Source: a virus (Duplodnaviria > Heunggongvirae > Uroviricota > Caudoviricetes). From it: a stretch of DNA of 39,749 bases. Location: the IMG/VR virus record IMGVR_UViG_2541047827_000012; one strand, given 5' to 3'. Of this stretch, positions 1,859 to 39,749 are shown one piece after another; within the stretch, counting starts at the first letter, position 1, and each line of letters opens with the position of its first letter. The notes under the pieces were generated by a model. It did not search any database. It was not told the DNA's origin and was given only the letters and a program-made list of their open reading frames with translations. The position numbers and the translations under genes were made by a program.

Positions 1859-1999
1859 ATAGTGCAGGGTCAAATCATTCCCACTCAATTATTTACGATA
1901 ACCATAACCAATTGAGTGATAACATTTTTCCAAATCTCAATTTTTATCGTACCGTTTTATATACCGTCACCGGAAATCAGTACCATGAAAAATGCCATG

Positions 2000-2482
2000 C
2001 TATCTGGTCAGGGTGTCGTACTGTTTTTCACAGACTCTTCCGGCTTCGGCTGCCCGGTCAGCATACTCTGCCAGTTGTCTGTTTCTCTCGAGAGATTTAC
2101 TGAGCACGTCGGCAAGCAAAACTCCGGTGTCTGCGGCTGACGTCCCAGCGCCGACAATGGCGTTATACTGCCTGAGCTGCTCACGGATGGCAACGAGCTG
2201 TTGCTGCAACCGGCCAGCGCGAGCGGCAGCATCAAGAGCATCATTGCGCGCCTGGTCGATCCTCTGCTGCGCTTCACGTTCATTGATCGCTTTCTCCTGT
2301 TCGTAGTGCTGACGAATTCTCTCATCTTCGGTTTTGCGGTCTTCTTTCGCCTGCGCATACCCGGCGTCGTACTGACGACTGCCGTGTACACTCCAGGCAA
2401 CAACTCCTGATATGACCAGAACAGCAAGCACCGCCATGATAATCAACTGTTTCCGGTATGCTTTTACGAATGCCCAGATCAT
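2000..2482 (-). CDS. Rz-like i-spanin (lysis)
   Basis: N-terminal TM segment then Ala/Gln/Arg-rich coiled coil; directly downstream of the endolysin and overlapping its stop; contains an embedded lipoprotein ORF in another frame. Confidence 0.6.
2008..2283 (-). CDS. Rz1-like o-spanin lipoprotein embedded in Rz (+1 frame)
   Basis: Frame inside Rz encodes [26 protein letters not shown] (signal plus lipobox LAGC) followed by a Pro/Ser-rich short tail; start could instead be the ATG at 2244. Confidence 0.5.
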   Translation of the reverse strand: MNVKRSRGSTRRAMMLLMLPLALAGCSNSSLPSVSSSGSITPLSALGRQPQTPEFCLPTCSVNLSRETDNWQSMLTGQPKPEESVKNSTTP

Positions 2483-3108
2483 ACCGCCAGCACCTTACTG
2501 GCATTGATGTATCGCGCGCGCCGGTCGTCGATGCCGTTCCGGCCACCATTGATAATCAGAGTTACACGTGCAATATCGCCGGTATACTTCATGCATCCTT
2601 TGCTGGCAAAGAACCACGCCGCGCTACGAGCCGCGTATTCGTCCTGCGCCAGCAGTTCAGGACTCTCCAGCAGGTCAACCTTAAGACCGTTTCCACAGTC
2701 ACGATAGTTATTCAAACCGGTAACCTGGATAAGCCCGCGCCCACGGTAGTTCCAGCCATCACCAGGGGCATTGTTCCCCATGCGTTTGCTGTACACCAGA
2801 TTGGCAATCGCTCTCTGGCGCTCAAGTGGCAATGGTGGTTCGCCTGCACGTCGCCCCAATGCGTTGGCCTGTCCCTGAGTGAGACGCCCAGCCCGAACAA
2901 AGTTAGCCAGTCCGCTGACGCTGTAGTTGAAATTCTCCTGCAACCGGGTGAAGCCTCCAGACTCATGCCCGACCTGAGCAATAAACATAGCCTGATCTTC
3001 TGGTTTGCTGATACCAAACTCTTTCATCGCAGAAGTTATATGCGAGAACCAGCGTGCGGCCAGTGCCTCGCTGATACCAGCAGCTCGCTGGAATTGTTTA
3101 ATCTCCAT
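2479..3108 (-). CDS. Endolysin, glycoside hydrolase family 19 (chitinase-like lysozyme)
   Basis: Motifs GHESGGF and [15 protein letters not shown] resemble GH19 catalytic/signature regions; sits between holin candidates and Rz. Confidence 0.75.
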
Positions 3109-3406
3109 GTTTAGACCTCGATACTTTGAAAATTTGAACGACGTTACCGCGCGTTTTAATAACCGCAGCTAGCATGACAGCGTTGATAATGACCTCAGAT
3201 AAATCCACAGCCATTGGCGTACGTAACCAGATTGCATAGGCGACACGAACAGGAATACTGGCCGCAGCAACAATCAGGAAATAAGCAAGCCATCCTCCCC
3301 ACCTTCGGTGTTGAGAGCCGTTACGCCGGAATGTGACAACGCGAATTGCTATGCCAGTGCAAATAACTGCATTGGTGATAAGCAAAAAAAACTCATGCGT
3401 TACCAT
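3098..3406 (-). CDS. Small membrane protein, putative holin or antiholin
   Basis: 102 aa with 2-3 hydrophobic helices, directly upstream of and overlapping the endolysin gene. Confidence 0.45.
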
Positions 3407-3806
3407 CGTCTTTTCTCCCCGGAATTAACTCGCGTGGATTATCGGAACGGTGATAGAGCCATATACCAATACGCACAGCGACAATTGCTGACACGAATGC
3501 GCCTGCAGAGAAAACAATCCCTTTTTCAAAAGAGTCCTGCGTGATGGTAGGGATCAGGCTGGCTATGCCGATAAGAATTGATGCTGCTGGTTTGTAAAAG
3601 AGAAGGCCGCAAAGAAAGCTGAGCATCGACAGGAGCACCCGGCGACGGATGGGGTACTCTACTGCAGAGGTAACAAAAATTACCGCTCCAGCCAAAGCAC
3701 CCAAAGCAACCTCAGGAGGAACTCCTGCTATCACCGCCGCCAGAGAACTCATGCTAAGCCACTGATTTAAAGTTTCACTGGTTAGTTGAGCTGACATGTT
3801 TTCCAC
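3393..3806 (-). CDS. Membrane protein, putative holin
   Basis: 137 aa with about 3 TM helices and a charged C-terminus; first gene of the lysis cassette. Confidence 0.5.
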   Translation of the reverse strand: MENMSAQLTSETLNQWLSMSSLAAVIAGVPPEVALGALAGAVIFVTSAVEYPIRRRVLLSMLSFLCGLLFYKPAASILIGIASLIPTITQDSFEKGIVFSAGAFVSAIVAVRIGIWLYHRSDNPRELIPGRKDDGNA

Positions 3807-3999: not shown

Positions 4000-4296
4000 T
4001 CAAATAGAGAAATAAACACAAAAACAAAAAACAACAGGAACAGCAAAATCCAACAGACTTCCCACATCCCACACGCGTGGATCAAAACCTCCCCACCACG
4101 GCATGTTGATACGTTTCCCTTTCCCAAACTTTTCTATCCAGCGATATTCTGCCTGGGTGTGTTCACGCGCAATGAAGAACGTACAACCGGCTATCGCACC
4201 GTAAGCCCAGTTTCCGGTAAAAATACCAACCAGTACCTGAGCCACAAAAGCGCAAAGCGAGTGAAGAAATGGAGTGACATCAATGCTCTTAATCAT
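4000..4296 (-). CDS. Small membrane protein of unknown function, translationally coupled to the tailspike
   Basis: 98 aa with two hydrophobic segments; start overlaps the tailspike stop; AT-rich. Confidence 0.45.
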   Translation of the reverse strand: MIKSIDVTPFLHSLCAFVAQVLVGIFTGNWAYGAIAGCTFFIAREHTQAEYRWIEKFGKGKRINMPWWGGFDPRVWDVGSLLDFAVPVVFCFCVYFSI

Positions 4297-6482
4297 GAAA
4301 CTTCCCCATTGGTTGAAAATATGGCTCCTCCAACGCCAAGTGTATTTCGTGTTGTGCTCAACCTCAGAGGGCTGGAGTCAGAATTAGAATATCCTGTAGC
4401 AGAAATAAAAGATCCTCCACTAATAGTCAACTGCGGAACATCGGCTATATCTGAATAAGTTCTGTCAGCAACAGTATTATTTATAGCCACATATGATCCA
4501 AAAAAACTTCTTATTGTTTGGTTTTTAACTTTACTTCCTTCAATGGTTATCCTACTACCACAGTCGGCAATAAATCCTGAATCTGCATCCAGCGTTGCAT
4601 TCATAAAAGAAGCTTCAGATCTCTCTACATCAATCCATCTAATATCTTTTGTGGGATTTGCACCAAATACATGACAAATATTAGAGTTAAACCTTACACC
4701 ATCTTGGAGGTGCATTAATTTTTTTATATCTGTACCCCATAGCCTTGGAAAATTAACAGATGCTCCTGCATGGCAATCAAATCCCAGCTCAGCCCCTGAG
4801 ATATCTACAGCCTTTCCTGAAATAACAGCACCAGTGTCTGCATTAACGGCTGTTCCACAATTGCGCATATCATTACCAGCAACATCAACGCAACCCGCAC
4901 CATCAATACGCACACCAAGTGCACATCCATAAAAACCTTTTTCAATATTTGGTTCAAGGACTTTACCACTTGTTTCTGCATCACTTTCTTCAACGTCATG
5001 TCGTCTTGCATCAACATATGCTGTATGAATGCAGGTTAATCCACGATATGAGCAATGTATAGTTTTATGGTCGCGTATATTAACATTTGAACCATCTCTT
5101 ACATTCCATCCTATATAACAATAGCTTGCACTTGACCCCTGAAAATCTGCTTTAACATTATAAATACAATTAACTGACGCAACCGTACTCTCTGTGCACC
5201 GTTCAAACTTGCTTACAGGCATTGATGCCTTGACATTATTTACCAGTTGCAGGGAAGAGTATCTGCTATAAGAAAAATCACATACGTAATACCCTTCTGG
5301 CATATATGCAGCAACACTTTCCTCATCAGGAGCACATCCGGTATGATATGCACTAATTTTTGCACCAAAACTACCATGAATTCCAACGTAGAACTTTCGA
5401 GCACCTGAATACGGATAGAAATTAAGTTCAGCTTTTTGAGTTACAATAAATGCACAAACATCGCTATCATCTCTATTTTCTTCGATCTGAATAGCAAATA
5501 CAGGACTTTTTGCTGCATCGCAAATGTAAAATAAATACTTGTATTCGTAATACGTTCTAACGATTTTAGTAAACAAACGAGTGTCAGAGAAAACCACTGA
5601 GTCTTCTGATGTTATTTTAATCCAAGACAAATCAACACCTGAACTGAATTCAATTTGATAGTTGATAATATGCCCGGTCTTAATTCTTATTTCGCAGAAA
5701 GCATTACCACCATCCCACATAGGTCTCATTGACTGGGCTGCAATGATTGCATCTTTGAGTGTAGGGTAATCACCCCATTCGCCAACAGTAATAACAAAAG
5801 TATAATATGAGTTAAAAACAGCGGCATTTTTGCCTTTGGATATCAACTCCTTAATCATAAAAATATTATCTTCGTAATCACAAGGAGAAATTATATCCCT
5901 CATTTTGCTTTGAAATGTTCGTTGTCTTGCCCCGCTTCCTGACGGTATAAACCAACCAAAACCACCAACAACCCCGGCGATTGCAGCATCGACATAATTA
6001 CGCATTGAGCGATTATTTACAGCGTCCTGCTCAAATGATGGATCTGCAAGGTTAGAAATTTTGTTTTGCTTTGCATCGTAATATTTTGCAAGCAAAGATG
6101 GTTTCATCAATGCACGTCTGAACCACCCAAAACATCGCTGGATCAGCATCGTCAGGTAGTCAAATGCATCTTCATGAACTTCGGGGAAAAATTTTCCCTG
6201 ATTGCGAAGATCAGTCTCCTGCACCACATCAAGCACACGCTCTATCGTAATTCGCCAGCCAGCAGCAAGCGGCGACGGGAGAACCACTTCACCGCCACTA
6301 TAAGTGCCCGCTCCAGTTACCTTATAACCGGTATCCAGAACCAATTCTGTTACGTTCCCGTTCAGGTCAGACACCTGAACAACCAGGTCGGTTTTTTTGA
6401 AAATACGGAAGGTATACGGAAATGATGTCGTAACGCCGTTACCGGTGTATTCGTTGTGGTCAACTTCGGTTGAGACCGTCAT
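4293..6482 (-). CDS. Tailspike/tail fiber: conserved T7 gp17-like N-terminal domain plus divergent C-terminal receptor-binding domain
   Basis: 729 aa; N-terminus MTVSTEVDHNEYTGNGVTTSFPYTFRIFK...DTGYKVTG follows the tail-fiber N-terminal adaptor pattern; C-terminal 500 aa is AT-rich with Gly/Ser/Asn/Cys-rich repeats typical of beta-helix receptor-binding domains. Confidence 0.8.
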   Translation of the reverse strand: MTVSTEVDHNEYTGNGVTTSFPYTFRIFKKTDLVVQVSDLNGNVTELVLDTGYKVTGAGTYSGGEVVLPSPLAAGWRITIERVLDVVQETDLRNQGKFFPEVHEDAFDYLTMLIQRCFGWFRRALMKPSLLAKYYDAKQNKISNLADPSFEQDAVNNRSMRNYVDAAIAGVVGGFGWFIPSGSGARQRTFQSKMRDIISPCDYEDNIFMIKELISKGKNAAVFNSYYTFVITVGEWGDYPTLKDAIIAAQSMRPMWDGGNAFCEIRIKTGHIINYQIEFSSGVDLSWIKITSEDSVVFSDTRLFTKIVRTYYEYKYLFYICDAAKSPVFAIQIEENRDDSDVCAFIVTQKAELNFYPYSGARKFYVGIHGSFGAKISAYHTGCAPDEESVAAYMPEGYYVCDFSYSRYSSLQLVNNVKASMPVSKFERCTESTVASVNCIYNVKADFQGSSASYCYIGWNVRDGSNVNIRDHKTIHCSYRGLTCIHTAYVDARRHDVEESDAETSGKVLEPNIEKGFYGCALGVRIDGAGCVDVAGNDMRNCGTAVNADTGAVISGKAVDISGAELGFDCHAGASVNFPRLWGTDIKKLMHLQDGVRFNSNICHVFGANPTKDIRWIDVERSEASFMNATLDADSGFIADCGSRITIEGSKVKNQTIRSFFGSYVAINNTVADRTYSDIADVPQLTISGGSFISATGYSNSDSSPLRLSTTRNTLGVGGAIFSTNGEVS

Positions 6483-6586: not shown

Positions 6587-6601
6587 TTACCTTTCAGGTA
6601 A
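6587..6601. promoter_or_regulatory. Operator-like palindrome TTACCTTTCAGGTAA
   Basis: Perfect TTACC-N5-GGTAA inverted repeat about 40 bp upstream of the LexA box and antirepressor-paralog gene. Confidence 0.6.
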
Positions 6602-6638: not shown

Positions 6639-6658
6639 TACTGTATAAATATACAGTT
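6639..6658. promoter_or_regulatory. LexA (SOS) box
   Basis: TACTGTATAAATATACAGTT matches the CTGT-N8-ACAG LexA consensus; 20 bp upstream of ATG 6678 and overlaps a TATAAA -10-like element. Confidence 0.7.
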
Positions 6659-6966: not shown

Positions 6967-6981
6967 TTACCTTTGCGGTAA
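6967..6981. promoter_or_regulatory. Operator-like palindrome TTACCTTTGCGGTAA
   Basis: Perfect TTACC-N5-GGTAA in the 312-bp non-coding stretch between the paralog and the antirepressor gene. Confidence 0.55.
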
Positions 6982-7248
6982 ATTTACATCGCACTCCTCT
7001 TGTGCCATAGTAATCGGGCACTGGCAAAATCCAGTGCCGGGATTGGCGTCCCGAGTTACTACAGAGGCACATATGCCGCATAAGCGGTTTTTTTTATGTG
7101 TAAAGCGCACCTATTCTATGGTGGGCTGTGTGGGGGCACCGAAAGGTGCGCCGGGTCCTTTGTAGCCGGTTACGCCAACCCTGCACAGTTCACCACCAAC
7201 CGATTGGCGTCGGTAGTGGTGATTAACCTAACTACAAAGGTGATCACT

Positions 7249-8008: not shown

Positions 8009-8023
8009 TTACCTTAAAGGTAA
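8009..8023. promoter_or_regulatory. Operator-like palindrome TTACCTTAAAGGTAA overlapping a putative promoter
   Basis: Perfect TTACC-N5-GGTAA; putative -35 TTGCAG (7981-7986) and -10 TACTAT (8004-8009) with 17-bp spacing put the site over the -10 and start of the 8050 operon. Confidence 0.55.
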
Positions 8024-8049
8024 ACCATGTGTTTACATGAGGAGGAGAT

Positions 8050-8259
8050 ATGGGATTTTGGTTCGCTCGTACAAAAACGAGGGATAATGCACCCAGCCCT
8101 CAGGCAAAAAATGCAGAAGTTCCGGCGTCAGCGCAGGTTAACAAGCGTGGTGGTGTGTATATCTCATCACAGCAAATTTCTGAGCTTCCTGAGGTTAAGG
8201 AGATGCGTCGTCTCGCTGCTGCAATCGTTAAACAGGATCTTGCCACTGTAAGGAAATAG
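8050..8259 (+). CDS. Hypothetical 69-aa protein, first gene of accessory operon
   Basis: Strong SD GAGGAGGAG 6 nt before ATG 8050; stop overlaps start of the next gene. Confidence 0.5.
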   Translation: MGFWFARTKTRDNAPSPQAKNAEVPASAQVNKRGGVYISSQQISELPEVKEMRRLAAAIVKQDLATVRK

Positions 8260-9125
8260 TGTTGTTAGCTCTTCTAATTATCCCCATTCTGGTTAGTGGT
8301 TATATTATGATAACCGCTAACCAGTATCATTATTTCCGTTTATACCGACATGAAGGCCAGCTTCTTTATATGAAAGTAGCTGCATTAGGTACATATTGCC
8401 TTGTTGCTTCGGTAATAATTGCCGCATTTATAAAATATAAATATCCTGATTTTCACCTAGTTCACGATATGGTGGAAACTTTTAATGTAACGTCAAAACC
8501 AGAAACAGATAGAATTTACATGTGGCTGCTTCTTCTCTCAGCCACATCCATTTGCTTCTCTTTGTGTTATGTGTCTGTTGTGTGGGTGAAAGATTTTCTT
8601 CTTGGTTGTTTTTATAAACGTGATATTTATGAGCAAAAAACAGAGGCAATGAAGGCCAGAGTACTGCGAAAAACTTACTCGCAAGGTTCTTTAGACTTAC
8701 TATTGCTTGATGCTATTGAATCGGATCCTAAACGACCAATGCTGATTACTTTATCATCAAACAAAGTGTATGTTGGAATAATAAATGGTTCTGGTGAACC
8801 AACGGAAAATCAGGGTCCGCATCAGCACATATCTTTTGTTCCTTTAATGTCAGGATACAGGAACAAAGACAACTTATCTGTCACATTCACTAATGCTTAT
8901 CCAGGAGAAATACAGGTCAAGCGGACTGCAGCAATAAGAGGAATTAGCAGAAAGAAAGTGCCAGGACTTGAGATCATGGTGTCTATTGACGAAATAAGTT
9001 ATATATCATGGTTTGATTTTGAAGTATATAAAGCAACAAATAACAAAGTAGAATCCAGGGGGCACGTTATTCGTGTTACCAAAAATGGAAGAAATATATA
9101 TCAAAGAAATAGCAAAAAAGAATAG
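8259..9125 (+). CDS. Membrane-anchored protein of unknown function (N-terminal TM helices plus 160-aa soluble domain)
   Basis: GTG start at 8259 overlapping upstream stop (SD AGGA 8251-8254); about 3 hydrophobic helices in the first 110 aa; markedly AT-rich versus flanking phage DNA; followed by a terminator. Confidence 0.6.
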   Translation: MLLALLIIPILVSGYIMITANQYHYFRLYRHEGQLLYMKVAALGTYCLVASVIIAAFIKYKYPDFHLVHDMVETFNVTSKPETDRIYMWLLLLSATSICFSLCYVSVVWVKDFLLGCFYKRDIYEQKTEAMKARVLRKTYSQGSLDLLLLDAIESDPKRPMLITLSSNKVYVGIINGSGEPTENQGPHQHISFVPLMSGYRNKDNLSVTFTNAYPGEIQVKRTAAIRGISRKKVPGLEIMVSIDEISYISWFDFEVYKATNNKVESRGHVIRVTKNGRNIYQRNSKKE

Positions 9126-9145
9126 CCCGCGCTGCGGGCTTTTTT
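9125..9145 (+). terminator. Rho-independent terminator after the membrane-protein operon
   Basis: GCCCGC-gct-GCGGGC hairpin followed by TTTTTT. Confidence 0.6.
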
Positions 9146-9217
9146 GTGGACGAAACAAAAGCCAGTGCTACACTCATTGACGCCACATTGAGGTGGCTTA
9201 TAGATGGAAATTTCACA

Positions 9218-9379
9218 ATGAAAAAAGCATTTGCTGCACTGTTCGTTTTGTTGTCTCTGGTAGCTTCAACTCAGGCCTTTGCCGGTCGTTGTCAGCACGA
9301 CAGCGATACTGCCGCTGACGGCTCCCGCTGCGGTGGGCGTTCTGCGGATTCCCGCCCGGGTGGCGGTGGCATTCGTTAA
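9218..9379 (+). CDS. Small secreted peptide (signal peptide plus about 31-aa Cys-containing mature part), hypothetical
   Basis: MKKAFAALFVLLSLVASTQAFA then GRCQHDSDTAADGSRCGG...; weak RBS; the track ORF from 9146 starts inside the upstream terminator so the internal ATG was chosen. Confidence 0.35.
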   Translation: MKKAFAALFVLLSLVASTQAFAGRCQHDSDTAADGSRCGGRSADSRPGGGGIR

Positions 9380-9402: not shown

Positions 9403-9414
9403 GTGACATGTCAC
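9403..9414. repeat. 12-bp palindrome GTGACATGTCAC (copy 1 of 3)
   Basis: Exact 12-mer shared with 26927-26938 and 29192-29203; overlaps the stop codon of 9411..9707 and abuts its terminator. Confidence 0.8.
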
Positions 9415-9707
9415 GTCCCTTTTCTGAATGATAGCCATTCGAAAAATGATGACATTCCACCGCAGACAATAGCAAAGATGATCCCACCAAAGAAGAGAAG
9501 GCCAGCCTGCCACCACTCCCACCGCCATACATCCACAGCGCCAACCATACCAACAATCGCTCCAACAAATGGAATATAGCTCACGATGAAAGCAATGGGG
9601 GCTGCAATTATCCAGTGCAATCCCCACCATGATTCAAGCCCAGCCATAATTGCTGCCAACTGAAAAAGACCAACGACGATATAAACAATGAATCCTATAG
9701 CTTGCAT
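9411..9707 (-). CDS. Small integral membrane protein (3 TM, Trp-rich), unknown function
   Basis: SD AGGTGA before ATG 9707; 98 aa, almost entirely hydrophobic helices. Confidence 0.55.
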   Translation of the reverse strand: MQAIGFIVYIVVGLFQLAAIMAGLESWWGLHWIIAAPIAFIVSYIPFVGAIVGMVGAVDVWRWEWWQAGLLFFGGIIFAIVCGGMSSFFEWLSFRKGT

Positions 9708-29081: not shown

Positions 29082-29088
29082 AACCACC

Positions 29089-29120: not shown

Positions 29121-29122
29121 AT

Positions 29123-29150
29123 GCAAAATAAAGCCGCCATAGTTGGCGGC
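29123..29150 (-). terminator. Rho-independent terminator upstream of the TerS/late operon
   Basis: GCCGCC-aactat-GGCGGC hairpin followed on the minus strand by TTTATTTTGC; 42 nt before the TerS start. Confidence 0.55.
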
Positions 29151-29191
29151 AGTATTCAAAACCCATCAAATTCATCATGCATAATCTACTC

Positions 29192-29203
29192 GTGACATGT
29201 CAC
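29192..29203. repeat. 12-bp palindrome GTGACATGTCAC (copy 3 of 3)
   Basis: Exact 12-mer overlapping the stop codon of 29200..29541, about 40 nt upstream (minus direction) of the terminator at 29123-29150. Confidence 0.8.
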
Positions 29204-30332: not shown

Positions 30333-30334
30333 AG

Positions 30335-30526
30335 CTATTTCACCTTAATCTCAACATTTCGCAGCTTTAGCTCTACTGGCAGGTCTGACTTTCCTGTTAA
30401 TGCTAATGCGAGATTTTCTGGGGTAATGAGAGCAGTTATTGCTTTCCCCATTGCCAGACGAATAATTATTCGTATTTCGCGATCGTCACATGCTCCTGGT
30501 CGAACGATTGATATTTGTCCGTCCAT
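30335..30526 (-). CDS. Hypothetical small protein (63 aa)
   Basis: Start set at ATG 30526 (SD AAGGAG; 1-nt gap to upstream stop) rather than track start 30577. Confidence 0.4.
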   Translation of the reverse strand: MDGQISIVRPGACDDREIRIIIRLAMGKAITALITPENLALALTGKSDLPVELKLRNVEIKVK

Positions 30527-30527
30527 C

Positions 30528-31181
30528 TCACTCTCCTTTGATGCGAATGCCAGCGGCGCGGATTGCAGCGATGACATCAGAAACTTTGTATGCCATTACC
30601 GTTTGGTAATCATCGTGAAAATCTGTTCGATGAAGCATGCTGCTACGTTCCGGGAGCAGTATTTCCCGCTCCTCCAGTTCTGCTATGCGCTTACTTCCAT
30701 CCGCGATTACTCCCTCGTAATATTCACGCTGCTCGTTGAGTCTTGATTTTGCTGCTTCAAGCTCAACGCGCAGCTTCCCTACCGTTAGCGCAATTTCCTC
30801 GTTCTCCTGGTCGCGGGATTTGATGTATTGCTGGTTCCTTTCCCGTTCATCCAGTAGTGCCAAAGCAACCTTTGGATTAAAGGCAGCAATAAATTCAGCG
30901 TTGTTTTTCAGAACGTGTTGCGCAATCGCCTGACTACTTAGTCGGACCTCATAACCACGTGCGCCACGGTTGATAACCTTGATTTCGTCCATAGCGCCAG
31001 ACTTCAGCCCCGCATTCTCCGCCGCCAGCGCATTAGCACGCGCCAGTTGCACTTCCAGTTGCGTTGCCAAATCGCTGATCAGCTTTGCCACACTGCGCAT
31101 ATCAACGGCACCACATTCTGCTTTCAGTTCCGAAGCCATCTCATGCCCGGCGGCAACTAACCCTTTGATATTACTTTCCAT
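30528..31181 (-). CDS. Hypothetical coiled-coil protein (217 aa)
   Basis: Long predicted coiled-coil segments; early/nin-like region. Confidence 0.5.
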   Translation of the reverse strand: MESNIKGLVAAGHEMASELKAECGAVDMRSVAKLISDLATQLEVQLARANALAAENAGLKSGAMDEIKVINRGARGYEVRLSSQAIAQHVLKNNAEFIAAFNPKVALALLDERERNQQYIKSRDQENEEIALTVGKLRVELEAAKSRLNEQREYYEGVIADGSKRIAELEEREILLPERSSMLHRTDFHDDYQTVMAYKVSDVIAAIRAAGIRIKGE

Positions 31182-31242
31182 CTTTACCCTCGCTTATCCA
31201 CATAACTTATTGATTACATTGATAACTAAAAAGATCGTCGAT

Positions 31243-31587
31243 TCAGAACTCTTCGATGTTCCAGCCACCACCTGCTTTCTTTGGTTTAACCGTTACCCCG
31301 ATGATTCGGAACGGATACTGATCTGCGGCGACTTTGGTTTTCACCCTGGCGTCGTCGGTCCAGAAACCTTTCACTTCGTGCAGTTCCATCTCGCCGGTGA
31401 CGAGCATCACAGCGAAATCGGGCGTATAGAACGTGTTGTCAGCTAACCGCAGCTTGATACCCTCGAATCGATACCAGGCGATTTCCCCTGCACGTTTACG
31501 CTGCTCAAGGTGCTGGCAATACGCAGATTCTGTTTTGTTCATCTGGCCTGTTTTGAGTCGACCAAGAGCCTGTATCTGTTTTCTCAT
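31243..31587 (-). CDS. Putative PD-(D/E)XK-fold nuclease (114 aa)
   Basis: Motif YTPDFAVMLVTGEMELHEVKG resembles the D...E-x-K nuclease core; SD GAGG lies within the palindromic site at 31591-31605. Confidence 0.45.
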   Translation of the reverse strand: MRKQIQALGRLKTGQMNKTESAYCQHLEQRKRAGEIAWYRFEGIKLRLADNTFYTPDFAVMLVTGEMELHEVKGFWTDDARVKTKVAADQYPFRIIGVTVKPKKAGGGWNIEEF

Positions 31588-31704: not shown

Positions 31705-32505
31705 TTACTTGATAAATCCTGCCGCCTTTCCCCGCCTGTATTCCTCCATCAGCCACTGCGCCGGTGTTATTCCCCCAAGGGTGGCGGCGTTAGGCATGCA
31801 CCCGAAACTTCGCCCTGGCGGGTGGTAAACGTCTCTCCCTGTGTCCGGAGGTGTACTCATGGGTTCTGGCTTTGCCTGTATGCTGATCACCGGATCGGGT
31901 ATCTGCTGTCCGGAAGCCACCTTTTTCGCCCAATCATCGAGCAGCCTGCGCGCGTGTTTCTCAACCTCAATCTCGCTAAGCTGGCGCTGATACATTGCAC
32001 GGCGGGTATCACATACGACCCAGTACATAACCGGATGTCGCCACGGGAATCTTTCGGGACCGCCAGGATATAAACTTTTTTCCTTGCTGTACCGGTGAAA
32101 CTCCGCCATCACATCGTCAATGGTGACGCCAAGAACCATCTTGCTGTCTTTGCACCACTTGATGAATTGCCCTGGCGACGGCCAGAACGGAGATTCACTG
32201 GCGCGGGCGTGGCGCATACCAGCAGAAACCTGTTCACGGGTTCGGATCCCCCCTTCGGCAAACGCAGCAATCCACTGCTGTTTTGCAGCAACTTCCTGCT
32301 CTGGCGTCTTCAGGTTGGTTACCACTGCCGCCGGAAACAGTTGTTTCAGCTGTTTAAAAAGGGCATCAACAAGCCTCTCTGCTGACATGTTCACCACATT
32401 GTCATTGTTGACGTATTGATGCTCATAACCTGACATGCGAGAAAGGGCTTCTCCGTCACGGTTTTGTATCGCGGTAAAAACGTTGTTCACAAGAAATCCT
32501 CCCAT
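31705..32505 (-). CDS. Replication protein P-like (DnaB helicase loader)
   Basis: Central region ...QQWIAAFAEGGIRTREQVSAGMRHARASESPFWPSPGQFIKWCKD... closely parallels lambda P as I recall it. Confidence 0.75.
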   Translation of the reverse strand: MGGFLVNNVFTAIQNRDGEALSRMSGYEHQYVNNDNVVNMSAERLVDALFKQLKQLFPAAVVTNLKTPEQEVAAKQQWIAAFAEGGIRTREQVSAGMRHARASESPFWPSPGQFIKWCKDSKMVLGVTIDDVMAEFHRYSKEKSLYPGGPERFPWRHPVMYWVVCDTRRAMYQRQLSEIEVEKHARRLLDDWAKKVASGQQIPDPVISIQAKPEPMSTPPDTGRDVYHPPGRSFGCMPNAATLGGITPAQWLMEEYRRGKAAGFIK

Positions 32506-33278
32506 GCTTCAGGGCTGTTCCAGTGCGGAACGTTGTTATCAGGTAATGTTGATTGCTTCTGTCTGCTAATCTGCAGCCGCCTTGCCAGCTTCTGCTCCCA
32601 CTGTGCCTGATGGTATGCCTTACCCTCAGCCATCCAGTAAATTCTGAACTCTGCAAGTTCCTGTGCCGTTGGCAGACTGTCCAGGTAGATCCCCTGCAAT
32701 GAGCTTTTCCGAAGAAAGTCATCTGATGGCTGCCATTGTTCATGCATGACAAATTTGCCTAATTGCCCTGGCCCACCAGGAGGAACAAAGTTATTCATCA
32801 CGGCGTTGTTTGCGCCGGGGTCATGAGGCACAGAATCCCCGCTTTTTGTCCTGCTCTCCCTCTCTTGGTTAAATGACTGGTTATATGACTGGTTCTGGAT
32901 CCCGTTTTTGGGATCATTCAACATCCCGTTTTTGGGTATATTCCCTTTTTCGGTAACATTACCGTTTTCGGGTTCATTGCCCCCCTCTCGGTTGCCTTTA
33001 ATGTTCCCGTTTTTGGTTATATTAAGAGAGAAAACCCGCACTCTTTTTGTCGCTCCCTTTCTCTCCCCGGTATCTGAAATAAGCCCCATTTTCATGAGCG
33101 ATATAAGTCCGGCCTGCACGGTTTTTTTATTCAGGCAAGTGTCTTTAACGAGGCGTTCTATGCTGGGGTAGCAGAGGTTATATTCATCGGCTCTGTCAGC
33201 CATCGAGAGCAGTATGAGCTTTAATGACGAGCTACCTGGATCTGTCTCCCAGGCCCAATCTGTTGCATGTCTGCTCAT
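32487..33278 (-). CDS. Replication initiator (lambda O-like / DnaD-like HTH), contains the origin
   Basis: N-terminal HTH-like segment, low-complexity Asn/Gly/Lys linker encoded by iteron DNA, conserved C-terminal domain; overlaps P-like gene start. Confidence 0.65.
   Translation of the reverse strand: MSRHATDWAWETDPGSSSLKLILLSMADRADEYNLCYPSIERLVKDTCLNKKTVQAGLISLMKMGLISDTGERKGATKRVRVFSLNITKNGNIKGNREGGNEPENGNVTEKGNIPKNGMLNDPKNGIQNQSYNQSFNQERESRTKSGDSVPHDPGANNAVMNNFVPPGGPGQLGKFVMHEQWQPSDDFLRKSSLQGIYLDSLPTAQELAEFRIYWMAEGKAYHQAQWEQKLARRLQISRQKQSTLPDNNVPHWNSPEAWEDFL
32866..33020. repeat. Putative replication origin: five iteron-like repeats (CCCGTTTTTGG) plus tandem ATGACTGGTT repeats
   Basis: Iteron cores at 32901-32911, 32925-32935, 32943-32953 (CCCTTTTTCGG), 32961-32971 (ACCGTTTTCGG), 33006-33016; tandem ATGACTGGTT at 32873-32882 and 32885-32894; all inside the O-like linker region as in lambda ori. 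Confidence 0.6.
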
Positions 33279-33911: not shown

Positions 33912-33974
33912 TCACCCATAAGGTAACAAAAATCAAGGATAGTTACCTATGAGGTGCATTTACCTGTTGGGTAA
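33912..33974. promoter_or_regulatory. Three clustered operator sites between the Cro-like and repressor genes (OR-like)
   Basis: 33912-33926 tCACC-N5-GGTAA, 33943-33957 TTACC-N5-GGTgc, 33960-33974 TTACC-N5-GGTAA; centre spacings 31 and 17 bp. Confidence 0.6.
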
Positions 33975-34614: not shown

Positions 34615-34636
34615 AATCATATTTTTCAGTAAGTAA

Positions 34637-34658
34637 GCCGCCAGAAGGCGGCTTTTTT
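34637..34658 (+). terminator. Rho-independent terminator after the repressor gene
   Basis: GCCGCC-agaa-GGCGGC hairpin followed by TTTTTT. Confidence 0.7.
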
Positions 34659-34671: not shown

Positions 34672-34686
34672 TTACCTAATGGGTAA
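34672..34686. promoter_or_regulatory. Operator-like palindrome TTACCTAATGGGTAA (OL-like, distal)
   Basis: Perfect TTACC-N5-GGTAA upstream of the TTGACA hexamer at 34706-34711. Confidence 0.55.
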
Positions 34687-34733: not shown

Positions 34734-34748
34734 TTACCTCAACGGTAA
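34734..34748. promoter_or_regulatory. Operator-like palindrome TTACCTCAACGGTAA overlapping the early rightward promoter (OL-like, proximal)
   Basis: Perfect TTACC-N5-GGTAA just downstream of TTGACA-N17 and followed by a GGTAAC half-site within the RBS of the first early ORF. Confidence 0.55.
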
Positions 34749-34922: not shown

Positions 34923-35222
34923 ATGAACGTTAATCAGCAGAAAAATCTTCAAAAAATCATGCTGGCATTCGACAAGGACTACCGCCTGTCAGAACAGCTA
35001 TATGACCGACAAGTTGAACTGATTGAGAGTATCCGGCTTCATCAACTGACCTCAACTTTCGACGTTGTAACAGGCAAAGGCGTTCGTCAGGAAGTGCTGG
35101 AGGCTGCTAAAGACAGCCCTGAGTTCGAAGAACTGATGGATGCCTACCGGCGCGAGGCAATGGCAATTATCGCCCGCTGGGATCTGGCGGATCAGCTTGA
35201 TGGACAGAGGGACGCGGCATGA
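34923..35222 (+). CDS. Hypothetical early protein (99 aa)
   Basis: Start set at ATG 34923 with SD GGAGG; ATGA overlap with the exonuclease gene. Confidence 0.5.
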   Translation: MNVNQQKNLQKIMLAFDKDYRLSEQLYDRQVELIESIRLHQLTSTFDVVTGKGVRQEVLEAAKDSPEFEELMDAYRREAMAIIARWDLADQLDGQRDAA

Positions 35223-36040
35223 ATCCGGGAATTTATTTCGATATCAGCAACGAAGACTACCACGCCGGTGACGGCGTGAGTAAGTCGCAACTGGACATGG
35301 TTGCCAAGAATCCGGCGCTTCTTAAATGGGTTCAGGCAGCACCAGAAGACGAAGAGAAAAAGTCTGCACTGGATATGGGAACCGCATTGCACTGTCTGCT
35401 TCTGGAGCCTGGAGAGTTCGACAAACGCTTCATTGTTTCACCGAAATTCGATCGTCGGACGAAACAAGGTAAAGCTGACGAAGAGGCATTTCTTCGTGAT
35501 GTGGCGGATATGGGGATTACGGTACTTGATGCCGAGCAGTGGCGGAAACTGGAGTTGATGCGTGATAGCGCAATGGCTCATCCGGCGGCACGCTGGATGC
35601 TGGAAGCACCTGGTTACTGCGAAGCATCAATGTACTGGAACGATGAAGAGACGGGTGAGTTGTGCCGAATTCGTCCAGACAAATGGCTAAACGAGCACAA
35701 CGTGATCGTCGACGTGAAAAAGGTTGCAGATATGGACCGTTTTGCACGCCACATCGAGGAATTCCGCTACCACGTGCAGGACGCAATGTACCGCGAAGGC
35801 GCAATGAGGGTTACTGGTCAGCCACATGGTTTTTTCTTTCTTGCCGTGAGCGAAAGCATTGATTGTGGTCGGTATCCGGTACGCGTGTTCGGGCTGGATG
35901 CGCCAGATGTCGATGCCGGGCACGCTCTGTTCCGCCGGGATCTGAATACCTATCACGAATGCCGCATCAACGATGAATGGGGCGGCGTGGAAATTATTAA
36001 ACGCCCTGAGTGGGCACGCAAACAGGATATGTACGTATGA
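35219..36040 (+). CDS. RecE-like exonuclease (exodeoxyribonuclease VIII-like PD-(D/E)XK nuclease)
   Basis: 273 aa; directly upstream of and overlapping RecT; acidic/Lys catalytic-looking core (...VIVDVKKV...). Confidence 0.65.
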   Translation: MNPGIYFDISNEDYHAGDGVSKSQLDMVAKNPALLKWVQAAPEDEEKKSALDMGTALHCLLLEPGEFDKRFIVSPKFDRRTKQGKADEEAFLRDVADMGITVLDAEQWRKLELMRDSAMAHPAARWMLEAPGYCEASMYWNDEETGELCRIRPDKWLNEHNVIVDVKKVADMDRFARHIEEFRYHVQDAMYREGAMRVTGQPHGFFFLAVSESIDCGRYPVRVFGLDAPDVDAGHALFRRDLNTYHECRINDEWGGVEIIKRPEWARKQDMYV

Positions 36041-36954
36041 GCAACGAAATTGCAATCACCAATGATGTGTTGGCTATTCGGGGAATCGATGAAGTTACAT
36101 GGAGCGCTCTGAAAAACAGTATTTACCCTGGGGCAAAAGATGAATCGGTAATGATGGCAGTCGATTACTGCCGGGCGCGTCAACTCGATCCTCTTCTTAA
36201 GCCGGTACACCTGGTACCAATGAGTGTTAAAGACTCGAAGAGTGGAAAGAATGAATGGCGCGACGTGGTCATGCCTGGCATTGGACTTTATCGCATTCAG
36301 GCCTACCGTTCCGGCGATTACGCAGGCGCTAATGAACCTGAGTTCGGTCCAGATGTAACACAAACGCTTTCAGGCGTGGAGGTTACCTTCCCTCAGTGGT
36401 GTAAGTACACCGTCAGCAAGCGAATGGCAAGCGGGGAAATCGTAGAGTTTAGCGCCAAAGAATACTGGATTGAGAACTATGCAACTGGGGGGCGTGACAC
36501 ATCGGCACCAAATGCCATGTGGAAAAAGCGCCCTTATGCGCAGTTGGCAAAATGCGCAGAGGCACAGGCATTACGTAAAGCATGGCCGGAGATTGGTCAA
36601 CAAGCCACAGCTGAGGAAATGGAAGGTAAATATATCGACTCACCTGACATTATTGAACGTGACGTAACTCCAAGAAGTCAGGCAAAGCACGGCACAGCAT
36701 CCAGCATGAACAGTCTGATCAACGCTAAAACAGTGAAAAAGCCTGATGAGCAAACGCGTAAAGCGGATAGCCGTGATCCAGAAGAAATGCTGATGGCCTT
36801 TACCAGCGCAGCGATGAATTACAGCACTGTCTCCGAACTGGATAAGGCTTACAAATACATTGCACAAAAACTTTCAGATGATGACGAACTGCTGGCAAAA
36901 GCCACCGACGTTTACAGCGTTCGTCGGGAAGAATTAAACGAAACATCTATGTAA
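36037..36954 (+). CDS. recT: RecT-family single-strand annealing protein
   Basis: Start set at ATG 36037 (ATGA overlap with the exonuclease stop); conserved RecT-like central region; paired with the RecE-like nuclease. Confidence 0.75.
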   Translation: MSNEIAITNDVLAIRGIDEVTWSALKNSIYPGAKDESVMMAVDYCRARQLDPLLKPVHLVPMSVKDSKSGKNEWRDVVMPGIGLYRIQAYRSGDYAGANEPEFGPDVTQTLSGVEVTFPQWCKYTVSKRMASGEIVEFSAKEYWIENYATGGRDTSAPNAMWKKRPYAQLAKCAEAQALRKAWPEIGQQATAEEMEGKYIDSPDIIERDVTPRSQAKHGTASSMNSLINAKTVKKPDEQTRKADSRDPEEMLMAFTSAAMNYSTVSELDKAYKYIAQKLSDDDELLAKATDVYSVRREELNETSM

Positions 36955-37003: not shown

Positions 37004-37252
37004 ATGAAAGGTGCATTAGGTAAGAAGGAACTCCTGGCGGTGGTGCCACTGTCATGGAGCACTATCGACCGTATGGAGCGCGCAGGGGAATTTCCTAAAC
37101 GCTGGTATATCACCGATAAACGCTGCGCATGGAACCGTGATGAAGTTGAGCGTTGGCTTGATGAACGTCAGGCAGCAAGCCCGGCAGAGTTCCAGGGTAA
37201 AAAGCCTCCTGTTCAGCAACGTGTATATCGTCCCGTGAGCAACGCTGCATGA
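37004..37252 (+). CDS. AlpA/Xis-like HTH protein (putative excisionase or regulator)
   Basis: 82 aa; ...LAVVPLSWSTIDRMERAGEFPKRWYITDKRCAWNRDEVERWLDE... fits the AlpA-family winged-helix pattern usually associated with P4-type integrases. Confidence 0.65.
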   Translation: MKGALGKKELLAVVPLSWSTIDRMERAGEFPKRWYITDKRCAWNRDEVERWLDERQAASPAEFQGKKPPVQQRVYRPVSNAA

Positions 37253-37412
37253 GTGCGCTGCTAAGGCACTGGAGCAAATGGTCAGGATGGTACTTATTCC
37301 TGGCCTCTGTTTCAGCATGGCTTTATCTGCTGGCATTAATTTTCAGAGAGGGTTGGATTAAGTGAGAAAGTTAAGCCGACTTGAAAAATATCACATGAAT
37401 AAGGTTTCAATG

Positions 37413-37661
37413 CGCAGTCCGTCAAAGATTGTCGCCGTTACTCCTGCGGCGATAGAGATCGAAAAACGCGCGATTGAAAGAGAGAAAAAAGGGCAATTCC
37501 GCATTGCCGCTCACCTTTGGCTTCAGTGTATGGATGTTGCTTCTGGTGATGTTGAACGTGCAAGGATCGCGGTTCGCAGGGACCAATGTATCACAAAAGG
37601 TAACGGCCTTCGCCGTGGCGACTATAGCGGCATAGGATGTTGTGGGGTGGTTTATGACTAA
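37413..37661 (+). CDS. Hypothetical protein (about 82 aa)
   Basis: Start set at ATG 37413 (SD AAGG); the frame is open back to 37362 (GTG) and 37395 (ATG), both without RBS. Confidence 0.4.
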   Translation, partial: RSPSKIVAVTPAAIEIEKRAIEREKKGQFRIAAHLWLQCMDVASGDVERARIAVRRDQCITKGNGLRRGDYSGIGCCGVVYD

Positions 37662-38304
37662 GAAATACACACTAATCTATGCAGATCCACCCTGGGTATA
37701 CCGGGACAAAGCCGCAGATGGTAATCGCGGTGCCGGTTTTAAATATCCGGTTATGAGTGTGCTGGATATCTGCCGCCTTCCTGTATGGGATTTGGCCGAT
37801 GAAAACTGTCTGTTGGCCATGTGGTGGGTGCCAACACAACCACTCGAAGCACTAAAAGTTGTTGAAGCCTGGGGATTCCGTCTGATGACGATGAAGGGCT
37901 TCACGTGGATAAAATGTGGTAGTCGACAACCAGATAAACTGGTTATGGGTATGGGACACATGACTCGCGCCAATAGTGAAGATTGCCTGTTTGCGGTAAA
38001 GGGAAAACTACCTCCGCGCATTAATGCAGGGATCGTTCAGTCATTTACCGCACCGCGGCTTGAGCACTCAAGAAAACCAGATGTCGTTCGTGAAAAACTT
38101 GTGCAATTGTTAGGCGATGTTTCTCGCATTGAACTGTTCGCCCGCCAGTCGTCTCATGGCTTCGATGTTTGGGGTAATCAGTGTGAAGACCCGGCAGTGC
38201 AACTACACCCTGGATACGCGTTGGATATTGCCAGATTAACAAATGCATTCAGCAATGCTCCGCTGTCACCAACAGACAACCAGGGGCGGGAGCGTGCAGC
38301 ATGA
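37654..38304 (+). CDS. MT-A70 family DNA N6-adenine methyltransferase (orphan)
   Basis: Catalytic DPPW motif in MTKKYTLIYADPPWVY; start set at ATG 37654; no adjacent restriction endonuclease. Confidence 0.8.
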   Translation: MTKKYTLIYADPPWVYRDKAADGNRGAGFKYPVMSVLDICRLPVWDLADENCLLAMWWVPTQPLEALKVVEAWGFRLMTMKGFTWIKCGSRQPDKLVMGMGHMTRANSEDCLFAVKGKLPPRINAGIVQSFTAPRLEHSRKPDVVREKLVQLLGDVSRIELFARQSSHGFDVWGNQCEDPAVQLHPGYALDIARLTNAFSNAPLSPTDNQGRERAA

Positions 38305-38495
38305 ACCGGGCATCACCAGCAGATTTAAGGAAATGCCTTGAAACTGCAAACATGCTTGCACACAGCGGGATCAGGTTTGTTCCAATTCCCGCTGTCACCG
38401 ATGCTGAATTTGCAATGCTGTCAGCAATATTCGCAGACAAAATTGAATCACTGGCAGCAGAAGCCGAGATGGAAGAAAATCAGCAGAACTATTAA
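38301..38495 (+). CDS. Hypothetical small acidic protein (64 aa)
   Basis: ATGA overlap with the methyltransferase stop. Confidence 0.45.
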   Translation: MNRASPADLRKCLETANMLAHSGIRFVPIPAVTDAEFAMLSAIFADKIESLAAEAEMEENQQNY

Positions 38496-38498
38496 ACG

Positions 38499-39749
38499 TT
38501 ATTCCCCCGCCATCCACTTCTCAAACTTCGACGGGGAGAACGGAATCAGATCCGTATGCTCCCCGTTAATCCAGGAATCAATCATATCGGCCCACTGCTG
38601 CAACATGTAGGCGCGCTGTCTGGCGTATTCCGCTTTGTTATATACGGCGCGCACACCTTTCTGCTCATGTGCCAGAGCCTTTTCAATCCAGTCTGAAGGA
38701 TAACCAGCCTCATGCAACAACGTACTGGCTGTACGGCGCATATCGTGTACGGTGAAGTCCTGAATATGCTCACCATCTTCATTTATTATTTTCACCGTTC
38801 TGTCGATCAGAGAGTTCAGCGCGGCATTAGATAATGGCTTCCGGAAATTGTAACGACCAGGAACCAGATATTCACTTCCACCAGCGCACATCTGCAACCC
38901 GACCAATATATCCTGTGCCTGTTTAGGCAGGTAAATAACGTGCGCCCGGCTTCCCTTCATGCGGTCTGAAGGAATTGTCCATGTCCATTTTTTAAAATCT
39001 ATTTCATCCCACGTTGCATTGGTGAATTCGCCTTTACGAACCATAGTGATAAGCACCAGCTTTAAAGCCATTTTCATAGTGCCCATAGCACCAATGGCAT
39101 CCAGCGTGCGGAAGAACAGGCCAATTTCTTCTGGTGTCAGTGTTCGCTCTCGTGGTTTAAATATGGCGATAGACGAAGGTTTAATGTCAGCCGCAGGATT
39201 AAACAAACCATGACCACGGTCATTGGCGTGACGGTATACGCTGCTGATGATCTCCCTGGCCTGTACTGCTGTTGCCCGACCACCGCGTTCGACAATCCGG
39301 TCACACAAATCACGAACCATCGATGTGGTAATTTCAGCCATCATTTTGTTGCCAAGAACCGGAAGTATGTCACGGTCGATCACCGCCTGCTTCATTGCGC
39401 GGGTACTGTCAGCCAAGATGACGTGTTTCATATAACTGTCGGTATGTACCGCAAACGTCTCGGCACCACGAATCTTTTTGATACCGTCACGTTTAGCCGC
39501 AGCCGGCGACTGGCCTGCTTTAAGCAGCTTCTTTGCAGCAATCAGTTCTTCTCGCGCTTCTGCCAGGCTGATACCGTCACGCCCATACTGCCCGATTACC
39601 AATGTTTCGCGGCGACCGTTGATACGGTAGTCATAGCGAAACGAGACCGTGCCTGACGTAAGCACAGCTACATACAGCCCGTCACGATCGGAGACCTTGT
39701 ACAGTTTGTCCTGCGGCTTGAGGTTTTTTAATTTTGTATCGGTAAGCAC
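38499..39749 (-). CDS. int: Tyrosine integrase, P4-like; N-terminus at or just beyond the window edge
   Basis: N-terminal LTDTKLKNLKP arm-binding motif; C-terminal catalytic residues (HDMRRT...AHE...VRAVYNKAEY); the ORF is open to the last base, so the first codon(s) may lie outside. Confidence 0.85.
   Translation of the reverse strand: MLTDTKLKNLKPQDKLYKVSDRDGLYVAVLTSGTVSFRYDYRINGRRETLVIGQYGRDGISLAEAREELIAAKKLLKAGQSPAAAKRDGIKKIRGAETFAVHTDSYMKHVILADSTRAMKQAVIDRDILPVLGNKMMAEITTSMVRDLCDRIVERGGRATAVQAREIISSVYRHANDRGHGLFNPAADIKPSSIAIFKPRERTLTPEEIGLFFRTLDAIGAMGTMKMALKLVLITMVRKGEFTNATWDEIDFKKWTWTIPSDRMKGSRAHVIYLPKQAQDILVGLQMCAGGSEYLVPGRYNFRKPLSNAALNSLIDRTVKIINEDGEHIQDFTVHDMRRTASTLLHEAGYPSDWIEKALAHEQKGVRAVYNKAEYARQRAYMLQQWADMIDSWINGEHTDLIPFSPSKFEKWMAGE

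Follow-up and report, generated by a model that had tools for sequence, protein, structure and literature searches.

The stretch of DNA analyzed here, referred to as the window, comprises 39,749 nucleotides from IMG/VR virus record IMGVR_UViG_2541047827_000012. It opens with a piece of Escherichia coli chromosome carrying yfgH, yfgI and a copy of the insertion sequence IS200C, followed by a lysis cassette, a tailspike gene, two predicted antirepressor genes, a block of cargo open reading frames (ORFs), the genes for the ejection, tail and head proteins, the terminase genes, and the early, replication, immunity, recombination and integrase genes (Table 1). The part extending from 1873 to 39749 is almost certainly an apparently intact phiV10-like prophage (genus Uetakevirus, epsilon15 group), inserted by a P4-type integrase at the 3' end of guaA of E. 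coli.

Identity and boundaries of the prophage

In a megablast search against 50,697 phage records, matches to phage genomes began exactly at 1873. Escherichia phages HEMP4, phiv142-3, PAS61 (vB_EcoP_PAS61), ZX5 (vB_EcoP_ZX5) and phiV10 displayed 96 to 98% nucleotide identity over most of the prophage, and Enterobacter phage Tyrion and Salmonella phages of the epsilon15 type displayed 75 to 82%. All annotated best phage matches are classed in the genus Uetakevirus. The epsilon15-like podovirus lineage proposed in an earlier first-pass annotation of the sequence was thus recovered, the best matches belonging to the epsilon15/phiV10 group of Uetakevirus and not to a siphovirus or myovirus. The gene classes named in that annotation, i.e., an adaptor and a nozzle, an internal core set, a tailspike, a P4-type integrase, a divergent repressor/cro-like pair, replication genes, and genes for a RecE-like protein and RecT, were all present. 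No evidence contradicting the identification of a Uetakevirus prophage was found.

Gene-by-gene comparison with phiV10 (tblastn) revealed that the structural, lysis, packaging, immunity and integration genes are all full length and 92 to 100% identical, apart from the holin (81%). The tailspike was the lone exception in this table, with only its N-terminal quarter aligned, and the table contained no truncated or frameshifted genes. The prophage shares with phiV10, HEMP4, phiv142-3, PAS61 and ZX5 its gene order, attachment (att) core, guaA target, tRNA-Arg gene and the isrK and C4 RNA pair, together with a 100% identical repressor, a 99% identical integrase and 97 to 100% identical virion proteins. 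It differs from phiV10 and phiv142-3 by the C-terminal part of the tailspike, which is 100% identical in HEMP4 only, and by different alleles of recT and several early genes. Epsilon15, the type Uetakevirus, is colinear for nearly all proteins (28 to 94% identity), including the nozzle (88%), adaptor (85%), portal (81%), TerL (94%) and integrase (88%), and has the same att core and dispersed operator motif. In contrast, its capsid, cement and staple proteins are only 36 to 43% identical to those of the prophage and its large internal proteins 28 to 59% identical; epsilon15 has O-antigen conversion genes and lacks the lambda P homologue, the BRO-N antirepressor, isrK and the C4 RNA. Judged by the integrase region, this type of prophage is present in 554 of 5426 complete E. 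coli genomes (about 1 in 10). The element belongs to an already described phage genus, with near-identical copies among sequenced phages and genomes.

Bases 1 to 1872 are host DNA, and the original hairpin of the guaA terminator stays on the host side at ~1824 to 1852. The junction on the lysis-gene side is a 17-bp att core, ATTGAGTGGGAATGATT, which was found once in the window versus 0 expected by chance and corresponds to the end of the guaA coding sequence (four codons plus the stop codon). The prophage had been taken to begin at 1859; its true edge is at 1873, 14 bp further in. The same sequence was shown experimentally to be the attP/attB core of ZX5 and was reported for phiV10 and epsilon15 (PMC9782041). 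In the related lysogen E. coli MS 198-1, a prophage of the same type is located between guaA and IS200C-yfgI and is flanked by a 17-bp direct repeat of ATTGAGTGGGAATGATT; there, the att core abuts the end of guaA, with 190 bp between it and the int start downstream. The IS200C copy in the window (1140 to 1860) has yfgI on one side and the displaced guaA terminator on the other and lies a short distance outside the prophage junction; this exact arrangement is common to 134 complete genomes.

As stated in the first-pass annotation, the integrase gene runs to the right edge of the window, its ORF starting on the last base. The protein contains the domains Arm-DNA-bind_3 (PF13356), Phage_int_M (PF22022) and Phage_integrase (PF00589) and matches P4 Int over its full length (409 amino acids [aa]; 28% identity; E = 3e-41 by BLASTP), which bears out the P4-type assignment; the coverage of phiV10 Int was 100% at 99% identity. 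The location of attP just upstream of int, a trait associated with P4-type integrases, was seen in MS 198-1 and also applies to ZX5 (PMC9782041); here, this position falls past the window edge. Given that int begins on the last base of the window and that 190 bp separate it from the upstream core in MS 198-1, the second junction, with its att copy, and guaA must lie outside the window and should be found ~190 bp beyond its right edge. The earlier claim that attR and the integration target lie outside the window therefore stands for the second copy and for guaA itself, but not for the naming of the target: the att copy contained in the window allows the 3' end of guaA to be identified without any extension. 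As shown for close relatives, insertion would duplicate the last guaA codons in the 17-bp core, and guaA would therefore stay intact.

Table 1. Position, strand and supporting evidence of features in the window
Feature	Position (nt)	Strand	Evidence or remark
Host flank, yfgH	1-516	+	Megablast to E. coli chromosomes with annotation
Host flank, yfgI	532-1071	+	Megablast to E. coli chromosomes with annotation
IS200C transposase gene	1219-1728	-	RefSeq annotation of identical stretch
STnc490 RNA (IS200C 5' leader)	1687-1810		Rfam, 146 bits
att core ATTGAGTGGGAATGATT, prophage/host junction	1873-1889	-	Exact match, 17 bp
Rz-like i-spanin (DUF2514)	2000-2482	-	Pfam
Embedded o-spanin, predicted	~2008-2283	-	
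GH19 endolysin	2479-3108	-	Pfam
Holin	3098-3406	-	Pfam, phiV10 annotation
Holin-like membrane protein	3393-3806	-	Pfam, phiV10 annotation
Hydrophobic protein, 98 aa	4000-4296	-	phrog_1443, no Pfam match; hydropathy
Tailspike, 729 aa	4293-6482	-	
Rep operator ahead of ant1	6587-6601		
LexA box CTGTATAAATATACAG, perfect	6641-6656		22 bp upstream of ant1
ant1, 85 aa	6678-6935	+	PDB 5d50_E (anti-repressor), E = 1.9e-46
Rep operator ahead of isrK/C4/ant2 unit	6967-6981		
isrK-like RNA	7018-7094	+	Rfam, 74 bits, above gathering score
C4 antisense RNA	7114-7200	+	Rfam, 79.5 bits versus gathering score of 45
ant2, BRO-N/Ant domain	7249 (probable ATG start)-7935	+	Pfam Bro-N
Rep operator ahead of cargo block	8009-8023		
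Cargo ORF, 74 aa	8027-8251	+	
Cargo ORF, 288 aa, N-terminal membrane helices	8259-9125	+	Hydropathy
Cargo ORF, 77 aa, signal-peptide-like	9146-9379	+	
Cargo ORF, 98 aa, membrane	9411-9707	-	
Internal virion protein, 824 aa	9903-12377	-	
Internal virion protein, 600 aa	12383-14185	-	
Internal virion protein, ~837 aa, transglycosylase-like region	14182-16695	-	
T7 gp14-family protein, 181 aa	16695-17240	-	Pfam T7_gp14
T7 gp13-like protein, 154 aa	17240-17704	-	hhalign
Nozzle (tail tubular B-like), 823 aa	17704-20175	-	
Adaptor (tail tubular A-like), 201 aa	20175-20780	-	
gp10-type staple	20780-21109	-	Pfam Gp10-like
gp9-like	21154-21498	-	
Bbp16 cement	21500-21937	-	Pfam Bbp16
Major capsid protein, epsilon15 GP7 family	21989-22981	-	Pfam GP7
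gp6 protease/scaffold candidate	22990-23691	-	
Bbp19-like	23688-23984	-	Pfam Phage_Bbp19
Portal	23981-25660	-	Pfam Head-tail_con
gp3-like	25675-25881	-	
tRNA-Arg, anticodon TCT	26309-26385	+	ARAGORN, Rfam tRNA
N4 gp49/Sf6 gp66-family gene	26584-26922	+	Pfam
TerL	27013-28488	-	99-100% identity to phiV10; no Pfam match
TerS (Terminase_2)	28485-29159	-	Pfam; 99-100% identity to phiV10
Mosaic early/accessory genes	29200-31587	-	Pfam; variable identity to relatives
Epsilon15 gp49-like regulator candidate	29200-29541	-	
Ead/Ea22	30528-31181	-	
DUF1064	31243-31587	-	
Lambda P homologue, 266 aa	31705-32505	-	Pfam Phage_lambda_P (PF06992), E = 1.5e-56
Initiator, HTH_36 and DnaT domains	32487-33278	-	Pfam
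cro-like gene, 76 aa	33645-33875	-	
Right operators	33912-33926, 33960-33974		Imperfect site near 33943
Repressor Rep, 194 aa	34030-34614	+	PDB 5d50_A; phrog_35
Terminator after Rep	34635-34654		Terminator scan
Left operators, flanking TTGACA promoter at 34706	34672-34686, 34734-34748		
ORF, 104 aa	34908-35222	+	
RecE-like PD-(D/E)XK nuclease	35219-36040	+	Pfam
RecT	36010-36954	+	Pfam
AlpA-family excisionase candidate	37004-37252	+	Pfam
PerC	37362-37661	+	Pfam
MT-A70 methyltransferase	37642-38304	+	Pfam
DUF1382	38301-38495	+	Pfam
P4-type tyrosine integrase, 416 aa, complete	38499-39749	-	Start codon is the last three window bases

Virion proteins and tailspike

BLAST revealed no similarity to T7, and the Pfam links to that phage were limited to the portal (Head-tail_con, PF12236, the gp8 family; E = 1.6e-187) and the 181-aa protein (T7_gp14, PF24072; E = 1e-7; 32.5 bits versus a curated cutoff of 27). 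Pfam returned no matches for the nozzle, the adaptor, the tailspike, TerL or the three large internal proteins and, taken alone, would therefore wrongly suggest the absence of a relationship with T7. Because BLAST gave nothing and Pfam only two proteins, family alignments were compared all against all with hhalign, using an epsilon15-like set (the window, epsilon15, BPP-1 and BcepC6B) and a T7-like set (T7, SP6, phiKMV and P-SSP7). T7 gp8 was matched by the portal (96.4% probability; E = 1e-9; 485 columns), gp12 by the nozzle (96.9%; E = 1.8e-10), gp13 by the 154-aa protein (94.5%; E = 7.8e-8), and residues 9 to 115 of gp17 by residues 10 to 126 of the tailspike (97.0%; E = 9.4e-11). In the controls, all 42 off-diagonal pairs had E values of >0.1, and the 12 further mismatched pairs, from the run with portal, capsid, gp6 and TerL, had probabilities of ≤1.7%. 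With hhalign, the capsid, the gp6 protease/scaffold candidate and TerL displayed no T7-specific similarity, TerL being dissimilar to T7 gp19. The hallmarks of Autographiviridae (a single-subunit RNA polymerase, a T7-type DNA polymerase, and the capsid and terminase) were not encountered among the ORFs scanned, which contained no member of the T7-type RNA or DNA polymerase families.

The nozzle matched the "Tail Nozzle" of Carin-1 (8ck1_A; E = 1e-216) and the adaptor the "Connector" of the same phage (8ck1_E; E = 3e-26). A PDB profile search with the adaptor alignment reached Carin-1 and LME-1 only, not T7 gp11. An AlphaFold (AF2) model of the adaptor was built from a 31-sequence alignment, with a predicted local distance difference test (pLDDT) score of 85; the single-sequence model (pLDDT, 38) was unusable. 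According to Foldseek, the former model matched T7 gp11 (7box_M; E = 3e-6; template modeling [TM] score, 0.57) as well as the Carin-1 connector (E = 1e-15), the LME-1 adaptor and KP32 tail tubular protein A (5mu4). Gene order and sizes also track T7, with products of 201, 823, 154, 181, 837 and 600 plus 824 aa versus 196, 794, 138, 196, 747 and 1318 aa for gp11 to gp16. The portal, adaptor, nozzle, gp13, gp14 and N-terminal fibre anchor are homologous to their counterparts among T7 gp8 and gp11 to gp17, with the same order and similar sizes. Unlike T7, the prophage is temperate, has a tailspike in place of the fibre shaft, and splits the gp16-sized function between proteins of 600 and 824 aa.

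As judged from these comparisons, the likeness to T7 covers the portal, tail and ejection proteins and not the head shell or the packaging enzyme. The structural module had been called T7-like without this distinction; the label fits the portal, adaptor, nozzle, gp13- and gp14-like proteins and tailspike N terminus and does not fit the capsid shell, gp6 candidate and TerL. Within these limits, the tail tube A and B genes were correctly named, the adaptor having the T7 gp11 fold and the nozzle matching both 8ck1_A and T7 gp12, as were the internal core set, of which gp13-like (hhalign) and gp14-like (Pfam) members are detectable, and the gp17-like N terminus of the tailspike (hhalign). The ejection proteins belong to PHROG families of internal virion proteins, head proteins and transglycosylases and are 98 to 100% identical to those of phiV10. 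In Table 1 of a review (PMC8954989), the ejection proteins of epsilon15 are given as gp11 (229 aa), gp12 (499 aa) and gp13 (708 aa), sizes that disagree with the RefSeq genes of this phage (201, 825 and 154 aa) and are at odds with the gp13/gp14/gp15-17 assignment made here.

By homology, the virion would be short tailed, with a capsid of the epsilon15/BPP-1 type that includes staple and cement proteins and bears a portal, adaptor, nozzle and fibre anchor of the T7 type. The T7-type internal proteins (gp13, gp14 and the larger ones) would be packaged and then ejected to form a channel for the DNA. From the 97 to 100% identity of the virion proteins, we infer a short-tailed particle with six tailspikes and an internal core.

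The N-terminal ~205 aa of the tailspike, which resemble the N terminus of T7 gp17, form a particle-binding domain common to epsilon15, phiV10 and Carin-1 Dpo31, and residues 1 to 202 were matched by PDB 28lx/8ck1. Only the N-terminal 23 to 28% was aligned by tblastn in phiV10, epsilon15 and phiv142-3. The C-terminal 524 aa, corresponding to the receptor part (4293 to 5867), are 100% identical to HEMP4 and ~91% identical to three other coliphages and show no relationship to the phiV10, phiv142-3 and epsilon15 tailspikes. The GC content of this region is low (0.39), which fits the exchange of a module; no sequence relative of it was found in PDB. Homology suggests that a swappable C terminus would set the host range. 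Next to the tailspike gene, the 98-aa hydrophobic ORF stands where phiV10 has an O-acetyltransferase gene, which the prophage lacks. The lysis cassette (2000 to 3806) is 81 to 99% identical to those of phiV10 and phiv142-3.

Immunity, cargo and replication

Rep is a full-length homologue of the SPC32H repressor (PDB 5d50_A; E = 4e-42), in which Pfam detected helix-turn-helix (HTH) domains only and no peptidase S24 domain. The window contains 13 operator-like sites of the form TTACC-N5-GGTAA versus 0.65 expected, 11 of them intergenic (starts at 6587, 6967, 8009, 25972, 29081, 29099, 31591, 31653, 33575, 33912, 33960, 34672 and 34734). They precede the tailspike/ant1 region, ant2, the cargo block, the head operon and the DUF1064 region, and two are located within the 5' end of terS. 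The identical motif is annotated as repressor-binding sites throughout the RefSeq record of epsilon15. By analogy with SPC32H, the two-domain HTH repressor would bind these operators, including those on both sides of its own gene, and the sites would also serve the antirepressor genes, the cargo, the head operon, the 5' end of terS and the replication/early region. The CI/Cro-like switch of the first-pass annotation is thus supported by its divergent layout with flanking operators but not by the nature of the repressor, which has no cleavage domain and is of the SPC32H Rep/Ant type.

In Salmonella prophages, including SPC32H, LexA cleavage releases Ant, which binds and inactivates the repressor (PMC7380047). 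The prophage shares with the SPC32H Rep/Ant system (PDB 5d50; Kim & Ryu 2013 as cited in PMC7380047) the repressor, a small Ant and a LexA box upstream of ant. Since a perfect LexA box adjoins the gene for a close homologue of the SPC32H antirepressor, induction is probably driven by LexA and the antirepressor and not by self-cleavage of the repressor. By the same analogy, SOS cleavage of LexA would free Ant1, which would remove Rep from the DNA. This reading alters the predictions of which stresses mobilize the phage. Two other matches to CTGT-N8-ACAG, at 21959 and 26501, have GC-rich spacers and were attributed to chance (0.6 matches expected).

Unlike SPC32H, the prophage has a second antirepressor, Ant2, with a BRO-N domain fused to an Ant-like C terminus that matches 5d50_E (E = 1.5e-13), and with predicted control by isrK and C4. 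The 279-aa ORF annotated for ant2, starting at 7096, is probably overcalled, the ATG at 7249 being the likelier start. In P1, the c4 RNA controls ant through pairing of its loop with the ribosome-binding region. Here, the C4 loop CCUUUGUAG (7157 to 7165) exactly complements CTACAAAGG (7232 to 7240) over 9 nucleotides overlapping the ribosome-binding site of ant2. A calculation for the full-length RNA duplex between C4 and its flanks barely beat shuffled sequences (7-8/300), and the argument for C4 control therefore rests on this short complement. By analogy with P1 and Gifsy-1, the antisense RNA would hold ant2 in check by pairing with its ribosome-binding site. The unit resembles P1 immI and Gifsy-1 isrK/anrP in having a C4 RNA upstream of ant with a complement of the ribosome-binding site, a terminated leader of the isrK family and an operator ahead; the context of IsrK is described in PMC4825925. 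Unlike in P1, no icd-like ORF was recognized in the interval separating C4 from ant2, the main repressor has no relation to C1 of that phage, and the regulation is deduced from the sequence. The pair isrK plus C4 is also present in phiV10 and phiv142-3 and is absent from epsilon15. A study of ZX5 in which the BRO-N antirepressor was overexpressed mentions neither LexA nor an antisense RNA (PMC9782041).

The cargo ORFs had no match in Pfam, PADLOC or NCBIfam and belong to PHROGs of unknown function, and a homologue search with the 288-aa protein gave only entries labeled "hypothetical protein". The ORFs of 74 and 288 aa are absent from phiV10, epsilon15 and phiv142-3 (tblastn), and the block was found in 28 of 5426 complete E. 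coli genomes. We tentatively consider, as a possibility that is rather unlikely to hold in full, that the E. coli branch of Uetakevirus (this prophage, phiV10 and phiv142-3) has a three-layer circuit, not found described for the genus, in which a noncleavable, genome-wide Rep is combined with a small LexA-gated Ant and a BRO-N/Ant protein gated by C4 and isrK, and that the operator-preceded cargo (8027 to 9379), with its membrane-anchored 288-aa protein, serves a novel role in exclusion or defence. Only the dual control by antirepressors and the unannotated cargo may deserve more work.

The initiator gene contains five iterons of ~21 nucleotides (ATCCCGTTTTTGGGATCATTC-like; 32899 to 33024), located between the regions for its two domains. 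On sequence grounds, this corresponds to the lambda arrangement of an origin within O, although the initiator is not a homologue of lambda O: its Pfam scan gave the HTH_36 and DnaT domains only. In such a scheme, the lambda P homologue would recruit the host DnaB. The O/P-like description of the replication genes thus holds by homology in the case of P and by function alone in the case of O, through the internal iterons. The RecET system was correctly recognized, the genes for the RecE-like nuclease and RecT being adjacent, and the AlpA-family protein is likely an excisionase, as its epsilon15 homologue is annotated.

Alternative explanations and accessory genes

That the element is a defective or cryptic Uetakevirus remnant instead of an inducible prophage is improbable. 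Such a remnant could account for the presence of IS200C ~20 bp outside the att copy and for the mosaic cargo region, and it gains from the location of the second junction outside the window and from functions known from sequence alone. Two related points are weaknesses of the intact-prophage reading: inducibility, the morphology of the virion, and the roles of LexA, Ant1, Ant2 and the C4 RNA are deduced from homologues, and the intactness of the junction at the second att copy, beyond the window, is assumed. However, the phiV10 gene set is full length and free of frameshifts at the high identities given above, IS200C lies outside the att core, the length of ~38 kb is in line with free phage genomes of 39.1 to 39.9 kb, and isolated phages (HEMP4, PAS61 and ZX5) are near-identical. 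A strictly lambdoid phage, with a self-cleaving CI, N/Q antitermination, an O/P pair and a P22-type podovirus tail, is less credible still. The prophage does resemble lambda in its divergent repressor/cro-like layout, with a repressor flanked by operators and divergent promoters, its true P homologue, its initiator with internal iterons, and its Ea22-type, DUF1064 and other lambdoid accessory genes. It is unlike lambda in its HTH_36 and DnaT initiator, in its repressor of the SPC32H Rep type, without peptidase S24 and non-self-cleaving, and in its operators, which are dispersed over the whole genome, outside the immunity region. The lambda O, N and Q families were not found among the ORFs scanned, which for N and Q did not include every small ORF. 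The structural genes are of the epsilon15/T7 type, no scanned structural protein belonged to a P22-type family, and no P22-like phage was present among the megablast matches listed for the structural genes.

For the T7-like portal, tail and ejection proteins of this Uetakevirus prophage, convergence or chance instead of shared ancestry would be in keeping with the failure of BLAST to find T7 and with the weakest pairs. The weaker results of the T7 comparison are as follows: the adaptor is related to T7 gp11 by fold only and not by profile (hhalign E = 0.037; 0.1% probability with T7 gp11 alone), the 181-aa protein matched gp14 with an hhalign E value of 0.024, the large internal proteins, which agree with gp15 and gp16 in position and size only, gave weak matches to gp16 (E = 0.005 for the 824-aa protein and 0.07 for the 600-aa protein) or none (the ~837-aa protein versus gp15), and the Pfam model of the T7 fibre N terminus missed the tailspike at E ≤0.01. 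Four independent pairs nonetheless reached hhalign probabilities of 94 to 97%, whereas the mismatched pairs (42 plus 12) all failed, two curated Pfam families are shared, the adaptor folds match, and the genes follow T7 gp8 and gp11 to gp17 in order and size. Convergence or chance is accordingly very improbable.

Beyond a correct annotation, the value of the analysis is small, as the biology has already been described for phiV10, epsilon15, SPC32H and ZX5. The useful points are that the target can be named inside the window, that the T7-like label is confined to the portal, tail and ejection proteins, and that induction is probably driven by LexA and the antirepressor. The swap of the tailspike C terminus and the unannotated cargo genes are the sole strain-specific content. 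The gene for tRNA-Arg(TCT) is located between the head operon and that of the terminase, in opposite orientation to the structural genes; the same tRNA-Arg is present in phiv142-3 and in phiV10, where it overlaps an annotated hypothetical coding sequence (PhiV10p04).

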